Both the position numbers and the translations under genes were made by a program. Shown here one piece after another: positions 5,133 through 34,765 of a stretch of 64,000 nt of DNA. Numbering within the stretch: the first letter of the stretch is position 1; the number at the start of each line of letters is the position of its first letter. This DNA is from Acidiferrobacterales bacterium. GTDB lineage: Bacteria > Pseudomonadota > Gammaproteobacteria > Acidiferrobacterales > SZUA-150. Below the pieces are notes generated by a model. The model saw only the letters and a program-made list of their open reading frames with translations. It was not told where the DNA came from and ran no database searches. Where the stretch lies: positions 6,642 to 70,641 of the forward strand of contig CAMYII010000052.1 in NCBI GenBank assembly GCA_947258385.1, written 5' to 3'.

Positions 5133-5636
5133 TCAAGCCGCGGGGAATCGTCGCGGCGGTACGAGGTTCTCCCGGGCCAGATGTTCATGGACCTGTTGCG
5201 GCGAGAGCTTGCTCAGATCCTTGGTAATGGCCTGCAGCGCCACCCCGGTCTTGGCCAGGGGATCCAACTCGGAGCGGAGAAACCCGAGCATGCGCTTTTG
5301 GGAGGCCAGAATGACGTTCTTGGAGCCATTGTCCTGTATCAGGCGAACCGCTTCCCGCGCGATTCCACGGGCAAAACGGCGCCTCAATTCATCCGAATGG
5401 CCGCTGCGGTGGTCATCGTAACCATGGGCCTGGCCGCTGCCGGATACGCGATTGCGTCCGCTTTTCATGTCACTCCAGAGCTCGTCCCCGTGCAGCTCCT
5501 CCTCCGGGTTCACCAGGTCCCGTTGTTCCTTGAGGTTCGGCCCACCTTCGGTACTGTGTTTATCGGCCGGTTCAAGTGTGAAAAAACGGGCGCGGGCGCC
5601 ATTGACGAGGACGACGCAATAATCGCTCATGGGCAA
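5133..5636 (-). CDS. Host attachment protein family (AtsE / baeRF-like)
   Basis: VLVNGARARFF..LVNPE..SD..G..FAR.IA..VILA..RMLG.LR..KDLSKL pattern. Confidence 0.7.
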   Translation of the reverse strand: MPMSDYCVVLVNGARARFFTLEPADKHSTEGGPNLKEQRDLVNPEEELHGDELWSDMKSGRNRVSGSGQAHGYDDHRSGHSDELRRRFARGIAREAVRLIQDNGSKNVILASQKRMLGFLRSELDPLAKTGVALQAITKDLSKLSPQQVHEHLARENLVPPRRFPAA

Positions 5637-5982: not shown

Positions 5983-6130
5983 TATAAGAGCGGCGTTGCC
6001 CGGATGGCGCTCATCTTTGACTGCCGCGCTGGATGTGACAAAGCCCCATGCCATCGCTGCGCCGGTGGTCAACCGCGTGCGTCCGGACGGGCTTGTTGGC
6101 GTCAGGGCAATGACTGGGACGGCTGACTCG

Positions 6131-6227
6131 CCGGGTGTTGAAAAACACCCTTAATAACTACCGCAGGGCTGCGCCGGGGTAAAGCGCGTTAAAAAAAGGC
6201 CATGAACGGGCTGTTTTCAACATCCCG
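6131..6227. mobile_element. Degenerate MITE-like element (~97 bp)
   Basis: Imperfect terminal inverted repeats CCGGGTGTTGAAAAACACCC (6131-6150) and GGGCTGTTTTCAACATCCCG (6208-6227), about 15/20 matches; non-coding. Confidence 0.45.
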
Positions 6228-6554
6228 TCAGATACTGGCGATGGAAATAAAATAGGGCACCCAAGAGACCAGCATTCCAATGGTTAAGAGCAAATCCAAA
6301 TTGACAATGAACTTGAAGCGCTTGCGCTCATCACCCTGCTTGTCCACCATGAATACGCTCGCCATCATCATATCGAGCAATAACACAAAGAACACAATGG
6401 GTGCGACGGCCGGCGCAATGAGCGTGGGTATCATCGCCCAACCGGAATACGCCGCCTCGTCCCCGGTAAATCGAGAGGCCAGAATGAAAATCGCGACTAA
6501 GGTTACAAGCAAGAACCTTAACACGCCGATGCGCTTGATGAGTGTGGTAACCAT
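6228..6554 (-). CDS. Hypothetical membrane protein (~108 aa, 3 TM)
   Basis: Three hydrophobic segments; ATG at 6554 lies immediately after the methyltransferase stop. Confidence 0.7.
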   Translation of the reverse strand: MVTTLIKRIGVLRFLLVTLVAIFILASRFTGDEAAYSGWAMIPTLIAPAVAPIVFFVLLLDMMMASVFMVDKQGDERKRFKFIVNLDLLLTIGMLVSWVPYFISIASI

Positions 6555-6555
6555 G

Positions 6556-7335
6556 TTAGGCCATGATGCCTTTTGATTCCAGAAACTCATCAGGAACATC
6601 TGAATTTTTCCAACCTGCAATGGCAAAATAGTACAGCGGCTCTCCCTCAATTGATAACCTATGCCGATAGCGTTCAATGTAATAAACATCAAGATATTTC
6701 GAGAATATTAATTCCCGAATCATTTTTGAGAACCCTGATTCATCGCTTATATCAAAGAAGGTTTCCTTGATATTAAACGCTACCCACGCCTCGCTCTTGA
6801 TTATATTAAACGCCTCTATAAATGCCTTTGCCGGGATGTCACCGAAACCGAGTGCGGCAACCGTTACCATGCAATCACATTGCCATGAACGTATTTCTTC
6901 TTTTTTGTCATCGTCCAGCTTCGTGAAATCCTCAACGTAATATGCATCATATATCCCTGGCCTATCCCGGATAGTTGCATCATAAGCTTCAGGAATTATG
7001 TCTACGCCTATTAAGCGCGAAACGCCGTGTTTTTTTAGCTCCTCCCCCATCATGCCATTGCCTGCACCTAAATCTAATATTCGAAGCTCAGTAAAATTAT
7101 CTTGATACTGCTTTACCGCTGATTCGAGTATTGAGGCTACTTTACTTGGAGATGTGCATTTCAGGCGGTCATAAAAGATTTGCTCATACAGACCTTGTAC
7201 CTGATAAATTTCATCGTAGTCGTGGAACCTTATTTTTCTCTTTCCGCCTGATCCTTGAAGATAGAAATAGGCTTCGTCTTGATTGAGATCGGATGATTCG
7301 GCCTTTGGAAATTGTATTCGATGTCTTTTGTTCAT
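6556..7335 (-). CDS. Class I SAM-dependent methyltransferase (AT-rich)
   Basis: ILDLGAGNG motif I, LIGVDI motif II; GAGGA RBS upstream; low GC. Confidence 0.85.
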   Translation of the reverse strand: MNKRHRIQFPKAESSDLNQDEAYFYLQGSGGKRKIRFHDYDEIYQVQGLYEQIFYDRLKCTSPSKVASILESAVKQYQDNFTELRILDLGAGNGMMGEELKKHGVSRLIGVDIIPEAYDATIRDRPGIYDAYYVEDFTKLDDDKKEEIRSWQCDCMVTVAALGFGDIPAKAFIEAFNIIKSEAWVAFNIKETFFDISDESGFSKMIRELIFSKYLDVYYIERYRHRLSIEGEPLYYFAIAGWKNSDVPDEFLESKGIMA

Positions 7336-7366
7336 TGCTTCCTCAGTTTGGATTGGATGCTTATTG

Positions 7367-7448
7367 GCTTAACGTGTTAATAACCGGTGCGCGCATTTTG
7401 CGCATCCGAATGATGCGATAGCAAATGGTGTTGATTCTGTTGTTAGGT
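7367..7448 (-). mobile_element. Integron attC site (attC-1)
   Basis: Minus strand reads R'' ACCTAAC, 5-bp spacer, L'' AATCAAC ... L' GTTATT, 5-bp spacer, R' GTTAAGC. It has an extrahelical C in L'' and an internal hairpin, is 82 bp long, and starts 3 bp after the stop of the 7452..7745 gene. Confidence 0.88.
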
Positions 7449-7451
7449 ATT

Positions 7452-7745
7452 TTATACTTCTTTATCTTCATATTTTACCCATTCTTCTCCAACCGCCTTT
7501 CTTTCAGCAGACCAGCATGGTTCGAGTGATGCAATTTCCATAACTGTAAAATCAATTTCAACAATTTTCTCCATTGATACCAGTTGAGTCTCTTCCATTG
7601 TTATAGGATCACCAGACAGAAATGCCCAATCATGATCCTCGGAATAGTGTGAAACCAAGAGAATAGGTTTATTTTGTTGTGTAATATGTACAGAAGTCAC
7701 AGCCGCCGCATTTTTTGGTTGATCAAATTCCCAATTAGATTTCAT
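7452..7745 (-). CDS. Gene-cassette hypothetical protein (~97 aa; loosely DUF2185/immunity-like)
   Basis: AT-rich ORF bounded by GTTAGGT (7760-7754) and the complementary ACCTAAC (7448-7442). The family guess rests only on PILLVSH..D..W.FL. Confidence 0.75.
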   Translation of the reverse strand: MKSNWEFDQPKNAAAVTSVHITQQNKPILLVSHYSEDHDWAFLSGDPITMEETQLVSMEKIVEIDFTVMEIASLEPCWSAERKAVGEEWVKYEDKEV

Positions 7746-7760
7746 TTTTATATACCTAAC

Positions 7761-7975
7761 GAGACTGTAGAAAAACCCCAGAAATCGACATTTTTTCAAT
7801 ATTTCGCCTGGATGGGTTTTTCTCTGTTGGATAGTAAAATTCGTTCATACGTTGATTCAAGCCTCTATGCAGGATCTTTTCAAACATTTAATCAAATGTA
7901 TTAAAAAATATTTTTAGCCACCTTAAATCGTCTCTAATTAAAATTTCTAAAATTTGGGGGTTTTTCTACAGCCTC
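7761..7975. mobile_element. 215-bp MITE with 19-bp terminal inverted repeats and a 3-bp AAC/GTT target duplication, inserted in attC-2
   Basis: Left end GAGACTGTAGAAAAACCCC, right end GGGGTTTTTCTACAGCCTC (18/19 match). AAC occurs on both flanks (7758-7760 and 7976-7978). No transposase. Confidence 0.88.
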
Positions 7976-8049
7976 AACGTATTAATAACCGGTGCGTAGT
8001 AGCGAATCCGAATGAGCGAGAGCGAATGCTGTTGATTTTCTTGTTATGT
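7972..8049 (-). mobile_element. Integron attC site (attC-2), R' interrupted by the MITE
   Basis: Minus strand: ACATAAC-AAGAA-AATCAAC...CGG..CCG-GTTATT-AATAC-GTT|MITE|GTTAGGT. Clearly homologous to attC-1. Confidence 0.88.
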
Positions 8050-8058
8050 GTTTTAACT

Positions 8059-8358
8059 TCACTTTGCTAGTTTCCATGCTGTATGAGCTCCTTTTACCAG
8101 TAAAAACACCCATAATGGCTCAATAATTATAACCACCAACCAAAACCCTGTAACACCAGATATAAGGCCTAATTCGCTTAGAGCATACAGAGGCATCAAT
8201 AAGAAAACACCAAACCAGAATAAGTATATGTTTCCAGGCCCAGCATGAACATTACTAAAATATGCGCTAATGAGATAAATAGGGACAATAGCAATAGCAG
8301 TGATAATTAGATGCTGCTTAGTATTATCGCTAATAGAATCATGATATTTTTTACACAT
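8059..8358 (-). CDS. Gene-cassette hypothetical membrane protein (99 aa)
   Basis: Three hydrophobic segments; AT-rich. The ATG lies inside core site GTTATGT (8361-8355), matching ACATAAC (8049-8043) downstream. Confidence 0.75.
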   Translation of the reverse strand: MCKKYHDSISDNTKQHLIITAIAIVPIYLISAYFSNVHAGPGNIYLFWFGVFLLMPLYALSELGLISGVTGFWLVVIIIEPLWVFLLVKGAHTAWKLAK

Positions 8359-29101: not shown

Positions 29102-32100
29102 CTATTGGTTAAGCAGTTCGTTAATGCTCCGGGTCAACTCGTCTTCCTGGTATGGCTTGCTCATATAAACGTTGACACCAAGTTCCATGGCCTTGTCCTT
29201 ATGTTTGATGCCGGCCCGCGAGGTAATCATGATAATCGGGATATGCTTGAGCGCCGGATCGGAACGTACTCGCTTGGTCAGCTCGTAACCATCCATTCGC
29301 GGCATCTCGATATCAACAAGCATCAGGTTCGGCACGCGTTCGCGCAACTGCTCAGCCGCATCCAGGCCGTCTTTGGCAGTAATCGCCTCGATGCCAAGCT
29401 TCTGCAGATACTTGGTTGTGATCTTTCGAACAGTCAGCGAATCATCCACGATCATCACGGCCGGACGCCGGCTTGCTTTCGTCTCCGCACGTTCAGCCGC
29501 GACAGGCGCCGCCGCGCGGGTGACATGCATCATGTCGTCTGACATCCACAGACTGGCGATATCAAGAATCAGAACTACTTTACCATCGCCGAGAATGGTC
29601 GCGCCCGCAAGACCTTTGACCTCGTTGAGCTGGGCGCTCAGAGGTTTTATGACGATTTCTCGCGTTCCGACCAGTCCGTCGACTTGCATTGCAACTTCAC
29701 GGGAACCGCTTCTGCCCAGCAGAACCGGGGCCTTATTAGTGCTGGCTGTTGTTCCATGCACTATCCCAAGATGCGAGGCCAGGCTCATGAAGGGGTAGAC
29801 TTGATCGTTGTGATTAAGCAGCGGTCTATCGCCCACGTAAATGTTAGTCAACTCCTCGGTCGGAATCTCAAGAATATTTATTATCGACGACAAAGAGAGA
29901 GCAAACATCTGGTCGCCCGCGTAAACCATCAATGCCTGCGTGATGGACAAGGTCAGCGGCAAGCGAATGACAAAGGTCGTACCCGCCCCCTTTTCGGTAT
30001 CCACCGACATGGTACCGCCAAGCTGCCTGACCTCATTGTGTACCACGTCCATGCCGACACCACGGCCTGAAATATGTGTGACGTGATCGGCCGTGGAGAA
30101 GCCGGAGACCAGAATAAACTGCATTGTCTCTTCTTCGGACAGCGCGGCATCCACCGGCATCAAGCCGCGTTCTATGGCCTTGTCGCGAATCTCGGCAATA
30201 TCCAGGCCGGCGCCATCATCGGAGAATCGCATGATGATCTCATTGCCCTGGTTTCTTGTATCGATCGTTATCTTGCCGATCTTTGGTTTTCCAAGGCGCT
30301 TACGGGTCTTCTCGCTCTCTATGCCATGGTCCAATGCATTACGGACCATGTGCTCAAACGGGGCTATCATACGTTCCAGCACATTCCTGTCGACCTCGAC
30401 GTTCCCGCCTGTAATTTCAAGCTGCGCGTTTTTGCCAAGCTCGCGCGCCGTCTGACGCACGATATGGCGCAATCTGGCCGCCTGGGTGTTGAAATCCACC
30501 ATGCGGGTGCGCATCAGGCCTTCTTGCAGCTCCGTGTTCACACGCGCCTGTTGTTGCAGTACGGATTCGGCCTCGCTGGCGAAATTCCCCAGATTCGTCT
30601 GGATTGTCGACAAATCGTGCAGGCCCTCTGTCAGACCGCGGGAGAGCTGTTGCAGCTTGCTGAATCTATCGAACTCCAATGGGTCGAAATCAGTCCCTGC
30701 CGTCGAGCCTTCTTTCTGGGCGCGGTAAAGAATCTGCGATTCAGATTGTATTTCCAGCTCTCTTAGTTGTTCACGGAACCGCGTGACGCTGCGTTGAAGC
30801 TCGGTGATATTTTCGTTAAAACCGTAAATCTGCTGCTCCATGCGCGAGCGCGAGATGCTCACTTCGCCTGCGTAATTCGCGAGCTCATTCAACAAATCGG
30901 TGCGCACCCTGATCTGCTCGCGCCGTTCCCATTTCTCTTGCGGCGCGATGCGGTCAGCGGCGTCCTCCCCACCGGGAGTATCGTCCTTGCGACGACCGCG
31001 GATCATTGCATCGGCCGCCGGACGTTGCCCGGATACAGCGCCTGAGCGGGAGGACGTGGATTCCGCGACTGCGTAAGCCGGGATCGGCGGGTCCTCGTGC
31101 GGCACAGCGGACACCGGGATTGAGGATAGATCCGCGCTGGTGTCAGGCTGTGTCGCACCGACAGCGGGTTGACTCCCCTCTGACCCACCCGACATCATGC
31201 TGCCGAGCCTAGCGTTAAGTGCGTCAACGCCGCTCGCCGGTTGACCATTACGCACCTGCTCGATGGCCGCGGCGAGGGTGTCGTGAATTTCATCCAACAA
31301 ATCGAGCAGCTCCGCATCGGGCTGAACCAAACCCTGCTCAACACGGCCGAGCATCGTCTCGGTGTGATGCGCAAGCTCGCCGAGCGACATGGCGCCTGAC
31401 ATACGCGCGCCACCCTTAAAGGTGTGTAATGCGCGTTTGAGGTCCTCAACTGCGCTTCGGTCACCCAGATCACCATGCCAGCGGGCAACCGCCTCGTTGA
31501 TGGTATGCAAAATGTCAACGGCTTCCTCATAAAAGATCTCAATGAGATCGGCATCAAGATGATCCTTGATTTGACCGGTGGCGTCGGGTCCAGTCCCTTG
31601 TACCGTAATTGGTTGCGCGACGGTTGGAATTGGATCGCCTTCGTCAACGACAATGGCGTCGACCGCGACGCTGCCCACGTCGAGCAGATCCGCAGACAGC
31701 GAGGTCTCAAGTTCCCTGTACACGGAGATAACGCGCTTTGTGATCTCGTTGAAACGCTCACTGGTGACGCGGGAGGTGTTACCGCGGTCACTCAGCTCAT
31801 CAACTACCGCACCAACGCAATCCCTGATCTCTTCCAAAAGGCCGAGGTGGCGTTCGCCCAGCATTATCTGCTGCGCCTCCATCTCCAGCAGCAGTTTTTC
31901 CATCGCCTTGCACGCGTCCGACATGGGCAGAAGACCGACTGACCGCGCGCTGCCCGACAACGTATGTGCCGCACGAATCAGGCCTGCAGAAGGAAAACAA
32001 CTGCCGGATTGCTCGCACCCGGCCAAACCCTCTTCAATGGTCCCGACATGTCCTTGCGCTTCGCTGATGAATATCTGCAGTAGGGTGGCATCCGCCCTGG

Positions 32101-34765
32101 GGATATCCCCCACGTCGTTTACCTGCATGTCCACCTCCGCAACGCGTGAGGGACTTTCGGCATCGCCCTGCGCCTCGTTGTTGCCATCGGCCAGCTCGTG
32201 CCCTTTGACGCGCAGGCCTTCGATATCCGCAGTCACGGCGGGACCGCCCCCGAGCTGGGCGATCATGTCAGGGAGCACGCCTCGGACTTCCTCGATATGC
32301 TCAAAGATCTCCTCGGTCGGGGCGATCTTATTCTCGCCGATCTTGTTAAGGATAGATTCGACTGACCAGGAAAATTCCGCGATCTCAGAAGCACCCACCA
32401 TCCGGCCGCTGCCCTTGATCGTGTGAAAGGCGCGACGGACTTCGAACATGGTGTCTCGATTGCCGGTATCCTCACGCCACAGCGGAAAATTCTTGTTTAT
32501 GGTATCAAGTGAATCCCTGGCATCTTCGATAAAGATCTCCATGATTTCTTCATCGAAGTCGTCGTCATCATCGCCTGTCGCCTGCTGCGCCGATACAGGG
32601 GCAGCCGCTTGCGCATTATCGCGCACCGTTGTCTCAGCCGGCGCCGGACTGGAAATCGTCTCCCCCCGCGCTCTGGCAACATCTATCGGCACCACTTCCG
32701 CCTGCGGGGGCGACATCAGAGTCTGGCTCACGATGCCGGCCAGCGTATCCAGCGATTTATTAAGCGTGTCAATGACTTCCGCGGTGAGCTGCGATGGATC
32801 ATCAGCGACGATCTGCAACAAATTGAGCATCTCCTGACTGATTTTGCCCAGCTTTTCCTGCCTTTTCTGCGATGCGATTAACGTCATGTCCTGCAAGTGC
32901 TGCTGCAGATTATTCAAGGCAGCGCTGTCATCTCTGTCTCCCAGCCACGCGCTAAGATCATTGTGAATCACCTCAAGCAACGCCGACGGATTTGCCGCAT
33001 AATCACGCTTTTGGCTGGTTGCCAGTTCCATCTCCTGCAGCGCGAGATCAACCAGCGCGTCGAGATTGGGGCGATTGAATTGCAAGCCGTCGACATACGC
33101 CCCTATCGTGCCGATACACACCGCCAGCGGATCCATCACGTCCTCATCCGGCGCAAGGACACCCTTGCTGATATCCTCCACATACCCGGCGGTCTTCTCA
33201 GCGAGCCTCGCCGCGCTGTCCTGGCCAAGAATCTGCAACGCCCCTTGTATCTGGCCAAGATGCTGCATCACATGTTCCATCTGCCCGGTCTGGCTGGTAT
33301 CGGCGACAAATATCTCTATCACCTCTTCGATGTTCGCCAAATTCACGCGGATCTCATCTGCAACCACGTTGAGCAACTGTTTGTAGTCGGACTCGGTGAG
33401 CTCGGCATCCGACACCTCCAGACCCTCAACCGAAGGCGTCCCCTCATCACCGCCGGAAGCCAGCCCGCGCAACATTGCCGTCGCATCGTCCAATTGCCGC
33501 TTCCAGTCTGTGGCTGAAGCGTGAATGTCACGGGAACTGCTTTCGATTAACAACAACGCACTTGCCATTGCCATTGAGACTGTCTCGTTACCTTCCAGCT
33601 TACCGTCAGTAATGGCCTCACAGGCCTGCCGCAGGGCATCGACTAAAGACTTCAGTATCGGGACGTCGAGCATATCCATGGTACTGGACATTTTGCCTAA
33701 CAATTTGTCCAACGGCTCAAGCGAATCGACCGCTTCCTGCTCCGGATCGAAATACGCAGCCAGCACGTCCTGCGCGGCTTCGATTTCCCTGACGAGTGCC
33801 GTCGATACCGACTGCAGGATTTCAGGGGTTGGCAGTTCACTGAGATCCGGCTCGGGTTCGGCGGCGACATTGCCCAGCAACAGATCGAGATCAAACGCCT
33901 GCTTTAATTGCGTGACCTTTGGGCTACCGGTCTTCGCCGTGGCGACGTGAAACAGAATCGATTTCACCAGCGCCTCGGTGGAACTGCGCAAATCGGTTTT
34001 GCCGGCACCCTCAACGAGTTTTCTGATCTGTTGATCCAATCTCGCAAGAAGCTTCTTTCTCTCGTTGGTCGGCTCAAGATCGCTCGACATCATCGCTTCC
34101 AGCAGCCCACTGGCAACCCAGAACAACTGCTCTACCACGCCCAGGTTTGCCTCTTGCTCCAGTTGATCCAGGATTGCGACCATATTATTCATGGCTTGTG
34201 TGCTGCCGGTATCGCGCAGCCAGGCAAGCAACGCGACCTGAAAGATGGGGCGCAACTTTCTGGCCATTGCCCGGTACTCGTCCGGCGACAACCCCTTCGT
34301 GGCTTGCTCTTGTCTTGGGGGGCGGACGGTAAGATCTGGATTGAACAGCTCGAGCTCGGAGATCGGTGACGTATTTCGCACAGTCCGCAACTCATTGAGC
34401 AGCGGAAGCAACCGCAGCGGCACATCGCGGTTACCGAACTGGAGACGCGCCAGGTAGTCCGGCAACGTCAAAATGCCCCGTATCAGGACATCGTAGATAT
34501 GCTCATCGGGCTTGAGTTCGTCGCTCAGAATGGCTTCGGCGAGGGCTTCGATCTCCTTCGCCAGCATTGCAGCGCCATCGAGCTCGACCATCTCAAGGGT
34601 ACCGACGACTTGATGCAGATGTGTGGTGCAGAAACGCAGTTGGGAATCATCACCCGGATTCCCGGCATAGGCCTCCAGCGACTGACGGGCCTGCCTGAGG
34701 CTTTCGTCAATCTCTGTCTTGACCCATCCCAGGGTACTGATATCAACTGTGCTGGTCGTAGCCAT
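29102..34765 (-). CDS. chpA: ChpA (PilL): CheA-like kinase with multiple Hpt domains, CheW and receiver
   Basis: Hpt motifs HQVVGTL, HTIKGSG, HTLSGSA, HTFKGGA; DPLEFDRF; EHMVRNALDHG; SGRGVGMDVV; C-terminal receiver. Confidence 0.95.
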   Translation of the reverse strand: MATTSTVDISTLGWVKTEIDESLRQARQSLEAYAGNPGDDSQLRFCTTHLHQVVGTLEMVELDGAAMLAKEIEALAEAILSDELKPDEHIYDVLIRGILTLPDYLARLQFGNRDVPLRLLPLLNELRTVRNTSPISELELFNPDLTVRPPRQEQATKGLSPDEYRAMARKLRPIFQVALLAWLRDTGSTQAMNNMVAILDQLEQEANLGVVEQLFWVASGLLEAMMSSDLEPTNERKKLLARLDQQIRKLVEGAGKTDLRSSTEALVKSILFHVATAKTGSPKVTQLKQAFDLDLLLGNVAAEPEPDLSELPTPEILQSVSTALVREIEAAQDVLAAYFDPEQEAVDSLEPLDKLLGKMSSTMDMLDVPILKSLVDALRQACEAITDGKLEGNETVSMAMASALLLIESSSRDIHASATDWKRQLDDATAMLRGLASGGDEGTPSVEGLEVSDAELTESDYKQLLNVVADEIRVNLANIEEVIEIFVADTSQTGQMEHVMQHLGQIQGALQILGQDSAARLAEKTAGYVEDISKGVLAPDEDVMDPLAVCIGTIGAYVDGLQFNRPNLDALVDLALQEMELATSQKRDYAANPSALLEVIHNDLSAWLGDRDDSAALNNLQQHLQDMTLIASQKRQEKLGKISQEMLNLLQIVADDPSQLTAEVIDTLNKSLDTLAGIVSQTLMSPPQAEVVPIDVARARGETISSPAPAETTVRDNAQAAAPVSAQQATGDDDDDFDEEIMEIFIEDARDSLDTINKNFPLWREDTGNRDTMFEVRRAFHTIKGSGRMVGASEIAEFSWSVESILNKIGENKIAPTEEIFEHIEEVRGVLPDMIAQLGGGPAVTADIEGLRVKGHELADGNNEAQGDAESPSRVAEVDMQVNDVGDIPRADATLLQIFISEAQGHVGTIEEGLAGCEQSGSCFPSAGLIRAAHTLSGSARSVGLLPMSDACKAMEKLLLEMEAQQIMLGERHLGLLEEIRDCVGAVVDELSDRGNTSRVTSERFNEITKRVISVYRELETSLSADLLDVGSVAVDAIVVDEGDPIPTVAQPITVQGTGPDATGQIKDHLDADLIEIFYEEAVDILHTINEAVARWHGDLGDRSAVEDLKRALHTFKGGARMSGAMSLGELAHHTETMLGRVEQGLVQPDAELLDLLDEIHDTLAAAIEQVRNGQPASGVDALNARLGSMMSGGSEGSQPAVGATQPDTSADLSSIPVSAVPHEDPPIPAYAVAESTSSRSGAVSGQRPAADAMIRGRRKDDTPGGEDAADRIAPQEKWERREQIRVRTDLLNELANYAGEVSISRSRMEQQIYGFNENITELQRSVTRFREQLRELEIQSESQILYRAQKEGSTAGTDFDPLEFDRFSKLQQLSRGLTEGLHDLSTIQTNLGNFASEAESVLQQQARVNTELQEGLMRTRMVDFNTQAARLRHIVRQTARELGKNAQLEITGGNVEVDRNVLERMIAPFEHMVRNALDHGIESEKTRKRLGKPKIGKITIDTRNQGNEIIMRFSDDGAGLDIAEIRDKAIERGLMPVDAALSEEETMQFILVSGFSTADHVTHISGRGVGMDVVHNEVRQLGGTMSVDTEKGAGTTFVIRLPLTLSITQALMVYAGDQMFALSLSSIINILEIPTEELTNIYVGDRPLLNHNDQVYPFMSLASHLGIVHGTTASTNKAPVLLGRSGSREVAMQVDGLVGTREIVIKPLSAQLNEVKGLAGATILGDGKVVLILDIASLWMSDDMMHVTRAAAPVAAERAETKASRRPAVMIVDDSLTVRKITTKYLQKLGIEAITAKDGLDAAEQLRERVPNLMLVDIEMPRMDGYELTKRVRSDPALKHIPIIMITSRAGIKHKDKAMELGVNVYMSKPYQEDELTRSINELLNQ

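Follow-up and report, generated by a model that had tools for sequence, protein, structure and literature searches.

Introduction

The attC sites of integrons are targets of mobile elements, among them the IS1111-attC group of IS, for which the primary papers are said to be those of Tetu and Holmes in 2008 and of Post and Hall in 2009. Two kinds of attC-targeting element, the IS1111-attC IS and the group IIC-attC introns, are named in the available portions of two sources, where both are said to insert close to the 5' end of attC, in the orientation opposite to that of the cassettes (PMC3001079, PMC11187229). A further source, in the portion available, cites only two IS1111 papers for attC targeting (PMC12444791).

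Folded targets are documented in the IS1182 family in the accessible parts of the literature: IS1272 and TnSha1 insert in hairpin stems (PMC4923244, PMC5678879), and according to a review cited in PMC4923244 some members of the family target palindromes. Cury et al. (2016) found IS among the cassettes in 23% of complete integrons and in 12% of clusters of attC sites lacking an integrase (CALIN), and the part of that paper available gives these counts without a breakdown by family (PMC4889954). In the full-text literature, ISfinder, TnCentral and supplements lying outside the scope, no paper was found that ties an IS1182 element or any element with terminal inverted repeats (TIRs) to attC; within those bounds, the view taken in a first-pass annotation of this DNA, that the system was undescribed, stands.

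Here, a 215-bp element lodged in an attC site is examined together with its relatives in other genomes. The data make it highly probable that it is a MITE of an IS1182-type group that uses a DDE transposase to enter attC sites at their conserved core, a reading that draws together the anatomy and family of the element, its target, the target duplication, its fixed orientation and its enrichment both in attC sites and in integron-bearing genomes.

Results

A cassette island with two attC sites

The window, meaning the whole stretch of 64,000 nucleotides that was analysed, contains a small island in which three small ORFs of low GC content share a strand with two attC sites; the GC content is 0.43 in 6001-8000 against about 0.6 around it and about 60% for the genome. 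No integron integrase is present near the island, and the two complete intI genes of the same genome lie on other contigs; the island is therefore a CALIN. The features of the island and of the element within it are as follows.

8059..8358, minus strand: cassette ORF upstream of attC-2, 99 aa, hydrophobic, without a Pfam match
7976..8049, minus strand: attC-2, with R'' ACATAAC (8049-8043), L'', loop and L' up to GTT
7976..7978, minus strand: left GTT of the duplication, which with the first four bases of the element forms the new R', GTTGAGG
7761..7975, minus strand: MITE of 215 bp, very probably a non-autonomous element of the IS1182 group that targets attC, assigned from its full-length relatives
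7957..7975, minus strand: left TIR, GAGGCTGTAGAAAAACCCC, on the side of the attC body; the same end is found on the autonomous IS
7761..7779, plus strand: right TIR, GAGACTGTAGAAAAACCCC when read inward on the plus strand, located by the end-motif scan
7754..7760, minus strand: right GTT plus AGGT, the original R' GTTAGGT and the start of the next cassette
7452..7745, minus strand: cassette ORF downstream of the MITE, 97 aa, with no Pfam match above the cut-off
7367..7448, minus strand: attC-1, the uninterrupted paralogue of attC-2, with R'' ACCTAAC and R' GTTAAGC
6556..7335, minus strand: third low-GC ORF, methyltransferase-like, with Methyltransf_11 above the cut-off

An attC site was taken to have an R'' of the form RYYYAAC and an R' of the form GTTRRRY, one bulge and unpaired spacers of 5-6 nt; R''/R' boxes, bulged L''/L' pairing, spacers and a length within 50-150 nt are all found in attC-1 and attC-2. 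The L''/loop/L' section of attC-2 is CCGGTTATT, after which come a five-base spacer and GTT. Candidate sites were scored with a home-made box test, in which an AAC must lie 36-145 nt upstream of a GTT. Points are given for pairing between R'' and R' and for agreement with the R'' consensus, and the pairs between L'' and L' are counted after a 5-nt and before a 5-6-nt spacer, with one bulge permitted. Sites with at least 6/7 L pairs that score 8 or more pass, a level attained by about 1% of arbitrary sites. In the island only attC-1 and attC-2 pass, and no attC was detected by this test after the third ORF. attC-1 folds into a canonical R-box stem, unpaired spacers and an L-box stem with a bulge; attC-2 is AT-rich and has a folding energy of -1.4 kcal/mol, folding energy being too weak to serve as an attC test here. 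When attC-1 was searched against its own genome with nhmmer, only the two window sites were matched, and the attC sites of this genome are heterogeneous.

Three further features of the window were recorded. A palindromic repeat lies at about 6127-6180 and recurs in at least 10 other places of the same genome (for example on contigs C10, C33, C40, C57, C61, C70 and C88); its core is CAGGGTGTTGAAAAACACCCTG, often with CTAAGCGC after it. It surfaced among 4-mismatch noise in the scan for TIRs and has the look of a REP-type element. An ORF at 5133-5636 (minus strand), beside the island, matches Pfam Host_attach / bacterial eRF1-like family 12, and a very long ORF of 1887 aa occupies 29102-34765 (minus strand).

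Anatomy of the inserted element

The element runs from 7975 to 7761 on the minus strand and is bounded by 19-nt TIRs that differ from each other at a single position (G/A at position 4). Read on the minus strand, with slashes at the element borders, the locus is ...GGTTATTAATAC GTT / GAGGCTGTAGAAAAACCCC ... GGGGTTTTTCTACAGTCTC / GTT AGGT, the two GTT copies being at 7978-7976 and 7760-7758. A repeat search gave the inverted arms as 7761-7801 and 7935-7975. With up to 3 mismatches allowed, the TIR end motif occurs twice in the 64-kb window against a mean of 0.02 in shuffled sequence, and none of the 100 shuffles attained two occurrences. To the left of the element, attC-2 (8049-7976) aligns colinearly with attC-1 (7448-7367), GTT included, and with the element in place attC-2 passes the box test using GTTGAGG as its R'. 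These results bear out what the first-pass annotation had read from the locus: that a TIR element sits on the attC GTT with GTT on both sides, that removal of the element and one GTT leaves an attC colinear with attC-1, here up to and including the GTT, and that the new R' fits the consensus.

The element has the hallmarks of a MITE. It is shorter than about 500 bp, has TIRs and has no transposase gene; no credible ORF of its own was found, and the ORFs present there only cross its borders. Copies occur at different sites with differing flanks and with GTT on both sides (quantified below), and autonomous elements with the same ends exist, namely the IS at L076:498-2257 and other IS with GAGNCTGTAGAAAAA ends. 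No visible derivation of the MITE interior from the autonomous IS was found. In the alignment of the MITE family the TIR stem is the sole conserved structure and co-varies at its inner end, internal structure beyond this stem has no support in the alignment, and comparison with Rfam returned nothing relevant. A three-way junction formed by attC-2 and the MITE on the plus strand does appear in the minimum free energy structure and was dismissed, its z-score of -1.26 being no evidence for it.

An autonomous partner of the IS1182 family

Through solo ends in many-copy genomes, the search led to a 1760-bp IS at L076:498-2257 which carries the same TIRs as the MITE and one ORF, a 521-residue frame (P0001). 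Its flanks read ...CCGGTTATTGCCGACGTT/IS/GTTAGC, its left flank passes the attC box test, and its transposase gene reads outward from the attC side, in the direction of the cassettes. In Pfam the transposase matches DUF772, DDE_Tnp_1_6 and DDE_Tnp_1, and against the NCBIfam model NF033551 (transpos_IS1182) it scores 274.5 bits, barely over the cut-off of 270. Public labels of its relatives are limited to "IS1182 family transposase" or "transposase". The layout expected of IS1182, a single transposase ORF between TIRs, is found in the 1760-bp element and in a second, 1839-bp element, each with one ORF; lengths in the IS1182 family are about 1.3-2 kb. The first-pass annotation had thus been right to suspect a non-autonomous element of the TIR/DDE type and to name IS1182 as a possible family, and the autonomous transposase that it had proposed looking for is provided by L076, with the same ends and the same GTT duplication.

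A 42%-identical IS in Pseudoalteromonas piscicida (NZ_CP074588) has the ends GAGGCTGTAGAAT... and the flanks ...CGTT/IS/GTTAT, and sits among attC sites of the same strand. Protein identity to IS1182 elements annotated on plasmids is about 24-26%. An annotated outgroup IS1182 on the P. fluorescens plasmid pPHE24 (NZ_KY503037; L109:486-2117), 25% identical, has ends (CAGGCTGTGTGAAAAC) similar to those of the attC-targeting group. It interrupts the loop of a palindrome that resembles a terminator (AAAAAACCCGCC ... GGCGGGTTTTT) and is bordered by TTAAT at each end. A script search for TIRs in a P. aeruginosa outgroup IS1182 (L110) gave none.

In the genome of the window itself no intact transposase of the attC-targeting group was found. 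What it holds is a decayed remnant of the 3' part of the IS on contig C115 (1393-1740; L111), with 62 C-terminal transposase residues and a degenerate right end followed by GTTATGC, and the window MITE is therefore an orphan.

Copies in other sites and genomes

The genome of the window contains a second full-length copy, on contig C37, that is 67% identical and has the flanks ...TAGTCGTT/.../GTTATGC; this copy lies behind a merR-like gene and outside any recognisable attC. Two partial copies, on contigs C102 and C49, lie against attC-like sequence. The C102 element (L007:184-383) is about 200 bp long. Its right end, ...CTACAGTCTC/GTTAGAT, is a good one. At the left, agreement with the TIR stops after 8 bases, and the sequence from there on looks like the ends of the outgroup IS1182; the attC-like sequence that the element adjoins has GTG as its last triplet.

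One genome per prokaryotic species was scanned with a pattern that comprised the inner 12 nt of each TIR and a spacer of fitting length, the outermost bases and the flanks being left unspecified. The scan returned 30 loci with 31 copies, nearly all in metagenome-assembled Gammaproteobacteria (Acidiferrobacteraceae, Sulfurifustaceae, Thiotrichaceae, Woeseiaceae and others). Adding the copies on C37 and in the window, a 585-bp derivative and two full-length IS gave a pool of 36 entries, of which 33 have GTT on both sides. The exceptions are a chance match without TIR ends in a Firmicute genome (L041), a copy whose right-hand GTT is absent (L019) and one whose left flank ends in GT instead of GTT (L044:2947). 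Among entries with enough flank, C precedes the GTT in 31/32, and A comes directly after the duplicated GTT in 28/32, with G (20) or T (11) as the next base. C and A are also usual at these positions in the unoccupied attC sites of the same genomes, so this flank logo is confounded with the attC consensus.

Elements were oriented by their flanks and their interiors compared after removal of the TIRs. All 73 pairs of significantly similar interiors are plus/plus and none is minus; insertion is therefore orientation-specific. In one locus (L017:1-242) two MITE copies lie head to tail with one GTT between them, and the junction made by an insertion is thus itself a usable target. No empty orthologous site was found when metagenome contigs were searched with each of two cassette proteins, neither of which had a relative there; occupied and empty paralogous attC sites do occur within one array at L092, at L024 and in the window.

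Several individual copies deserve mention in their own right. A MITE at L044:2947-3162 (G006:C12) lies 172 bp from the start codon of intI, at the junction of attI and the first cassette. A 585-bp non-autonomous derivative in an attC (L071:1498-2082; G006:C187) has kept the N-terminus of the transposase, and two 159-bp non-autonomous derivatives (L092:211-369 and L104:307-465; both G252) lie in attC sites.

Spread and association with integrons

Of 400 genomes sampled from the same class, 24 hold homologues of the transposase (E <= 1e-40, 37-100% identity). This search was made with the protein, so that ends and flanks played no part in it. Wherever element ends could be recognised in the published loci they abut GTT (37/37, read by eye). 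A transposase carried by about 6% of the sampled genomes of the class indicates that the phenomenon is not rare. An intI gene (E <= 1e-60) is found in 22/24 IS-positive genomes against 128/375 of the others, a comparison in which the genomes are interrelated and any p-value is overstated; with the four unpublished genomes (G150, G305, G048 and G317), on which none of the conclusions depends, left out, the figures are 20/22 against 126/373.

Insertion sites are enriched for attC

Twenty-nine of the 36 entries could be evaluated for their insertion sites, after three without the duplication and four with flanks shorter than 100 nt (L017, L030, L033 and L037) had been set aside. Once restored, 18 of these 29 sites pass the box test, against 22/2204 CGTTA(G/T) sites and 13/565 CGTTAKSY sites of the window's own genome (Fisher p ~1e-26). 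With the elements in place, 13 occupied sites still pass, that of the window included. For the IS set, left flanks were evaluated in the occupied state at L >= 6 and a score of at least 7.5, where 12/15 evaluable flanks pass and 39/2204 controls do. A perfect 6-bp stem upstream of the GTT is present at 9/29 sites and at 16% of controls, which makes it uninformative as a test.

A single case could not have excluded that the coincidence of the window insertion with the attC triplet was due to chance. With GTT flanks in 33/36 entries and at 37/37 IS ends, and with the enrichment just given, this explanation was tested and rejected, and its probability is negligible. The first-pass annotation had named, as what would count against attC targeting, other copies at unrelated targets with variable duplications, and had proposed examining flanks for enrichment of R' with a duplicated GTT. 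The flanks, the box test and the IS ends agree that the R' GTT is targeted with a 3-bp duplication, and its proposal survives on both counts.

The enrichment is not complete. In the MITE set 11/29 sites fail, and in the IS set 3/15 (L086, L090 and L096). About four of the MITE-set failures are attC-like by eye, with five or fewer L pairs and a clear R'' (L028, L029, L035 and L077). At least the copies at L026, L038, L042, L086, L090 and L096 and that on C37 of the own genome lie outside recognisable attC, from which it follows that the core-sequence component alone can suffice. Small inverted repeats directly before the GTT were seen at the C37 copy and at L026, as an anecdotal observation.

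These insertions bring in a simpler explanation, that the transposase reads a short core only (approximately C-GTT-A-K) and that the elements pile up in attC because cassette arrays tolerate insertions, those elsewhere having been selected away. The copies on C37 and at L026, L038 and L042, which lie outside recognisable attC and yet keep the core, speak for it, as do the copy at the attI junction and the tandem at L017, where the GTT follows the end of another copy. However, only 1.0-2.3% of the core sites of the own genome are attC-like, compared with 62% (18/29) of the insertions. Neutral intergenic core sites should far exceed attC sites in number, yet they make up a minority of the insertions, and intI is present in 22 of the 24 IS-bearing genomes. 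The core alone cannot explain the enrichment for attC, because only 1-2% of core sites are attC-like, and recognition of the core by itself is considered unlikely.

The element is very probably not a gene cassette

It could also be argued that the element is a non-coding cassette moved by the integrase, with the GTT pair representing cassette boundaries (G/TT) and not a duplication made by a transposase. Every cassette is bounded by G/TT, the elements share one orientation and are mostly found in arrays, and in 6/33 of them the 3' end itself passes the attC test. These six comprise only two distinct sequences, being five identical copies in one genome plus L077. Against this, the 3' end of the window element fails with a score of 5.5 and 3/7 L-box pairs, as do 27/33 in all, and the candidate assignment to integron gene cassettes was rejected for lack of an attC of the element's own. 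Furthermore, the ends are co-varying 19-nt TIRs held in common with full-length IS that encode a DDE transposase, the joined ends would place GTT in the loop of a perfect palindrome and not in an R-box stem, and copies are present outside arrays. A cassette origin is therefore very improbable, though not quite as remote as chance.

Discussion

Targeting of attC by a DDE transposase remains the favoured explanation, and the loci compared allow a model of insertion to be proposed. The target reads C-GTT-A(G/T) at the 3' (R') end of attC, where staggered cuts flanking the GTT would lead to duplication of the triplet; staggered joining on either side of GTT is implied by the 3-bp duplication. IntI crosses over between G and TT, and the joining point is one bond off this crossover. 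The same end of the element always faces the attC body, which makes the transposase gene of the full-length IS codirectional with the cassettes. After insertion the upstream attC retains R'', L'', L', the spacer and the GTT at the correct distance, with GAGG or a variant of it from the element supplying the last four bases of R' and the remainder of the old R' staying with the next cassette.

By analogy with other IS1182 members, which target hairpins, the transposase may read the core together with an attC-specific feature, either the adjacent L' arm or an extruded hairpin or cruciform. Such a mode of recognition would explain the fixed orientation, since the L' arm or hairpin lies on one side of the cut. 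The insertions outside attC, the tandem at L017 and the copy at the attI junction (L044:2947), attI not being a hairpin, argue against a purely structural reading.

Judging from the formal attC features that are kept, the interrupted attC may still recombine, and if the integrase uses the left GTT, the element would ride along as the 5' part of the next cassette. No trace of such co-mobilisation, that is, a shared element and downstream flank behind different upstream sites, was found among the loci compared. The suggestion in the first-pass annotation that the element might supply a promoter was not borne out: a simple scan found no outward promoter-like site on the cassette strand of the element, and the region has 4 promoter-like sites against 4.5 expected.

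A bolder possibility, offered tentatively and rated well short of an even chance, is that this IS1182 group has adapted to the integron, reading a folded or integrase-bound core, sparing the upstream attC and leaving the integrase to spread the IS or MITE as the front of a cassette. If true, this would be a transposon with integron cassettes as its vehicle. Recognition of attC by the transposase would give a new handle on how proteins recognise these sites, and occupied sites amount to a natural experiment on the parts of R' that the integrase requires. Such insertions may also explain a share of the transposases and "empty" cassettes that have been counted in arrays, and annotation tools would need to allow for the fact that GAGGCTGTAG... 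after an attC is not the start of a cassette.

Comparison with known systems

The group is a target-specific variant of a known IS family and constitutes a third kind of attC-targeting mobile element, with a different chemistry (DDE transposase, TIRs and a 3-bp duplication), a position at the crossover triplet on the 3' side, a sense orientation and MITEs spawned from it. The comparisons below draw, for the published systems, on the available portions of the sources.

The IS1111-attC elements (ISPa21, ISPst6 and ISKpn4) resemble the present group in being IS on attC with one position and one orientation (PMC3001079, PMC11187229). They differ in having a DEDD transposase with a seekRNA, subterminal repeats and a circular intermediate, and in their antisense insertion near the 5' end of attC (PMC3001079), whereas the elements described here have a DDE transposase, TIRs, a 3-bp GTT duplication, a location at the 3' R' box, a sense orientation and MITE derivatives. 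Membership of the IS1111-attC group was considered and rejected, given the DDE/IS1182 transposase, the terminal repeats and the sense insertion at R'.

The group IIC-attC introns offer a parallel: within a larger class of mobile elements they form a monophyletic lineage specialised for attC sites (PMC3001079). Unlike the present group they are retroelements. Their insertions go into the bottom strand, close to the 5' end of attC, and face against cassette transcription; some of the introns are described as carrying outward promoters, none of which was detected in the element here.

Integron mobilization units, the MITE pairs of class 1 integrons and TIMEs are, like the window element, short elements with TIRs (cited in PMC11602168). 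In contrast to it, they are described as flanking whole integrons or resistance genes and moving composite units, and not as lying in attC.

Closest in family are IS1272 and TnSha1, which belong to IS1182 as well and have hairpins or palindromes as targets (PMC4923244, PMC5678879). IS1272, however, is described as inserting in both orientations, without a target duplication and without a preference in primary sequence, with part of the stem being deleted (PMC4923244), whereas the group reported here has a fixed GTT duplication, a conserved target sequence, no deletion and one orientation.
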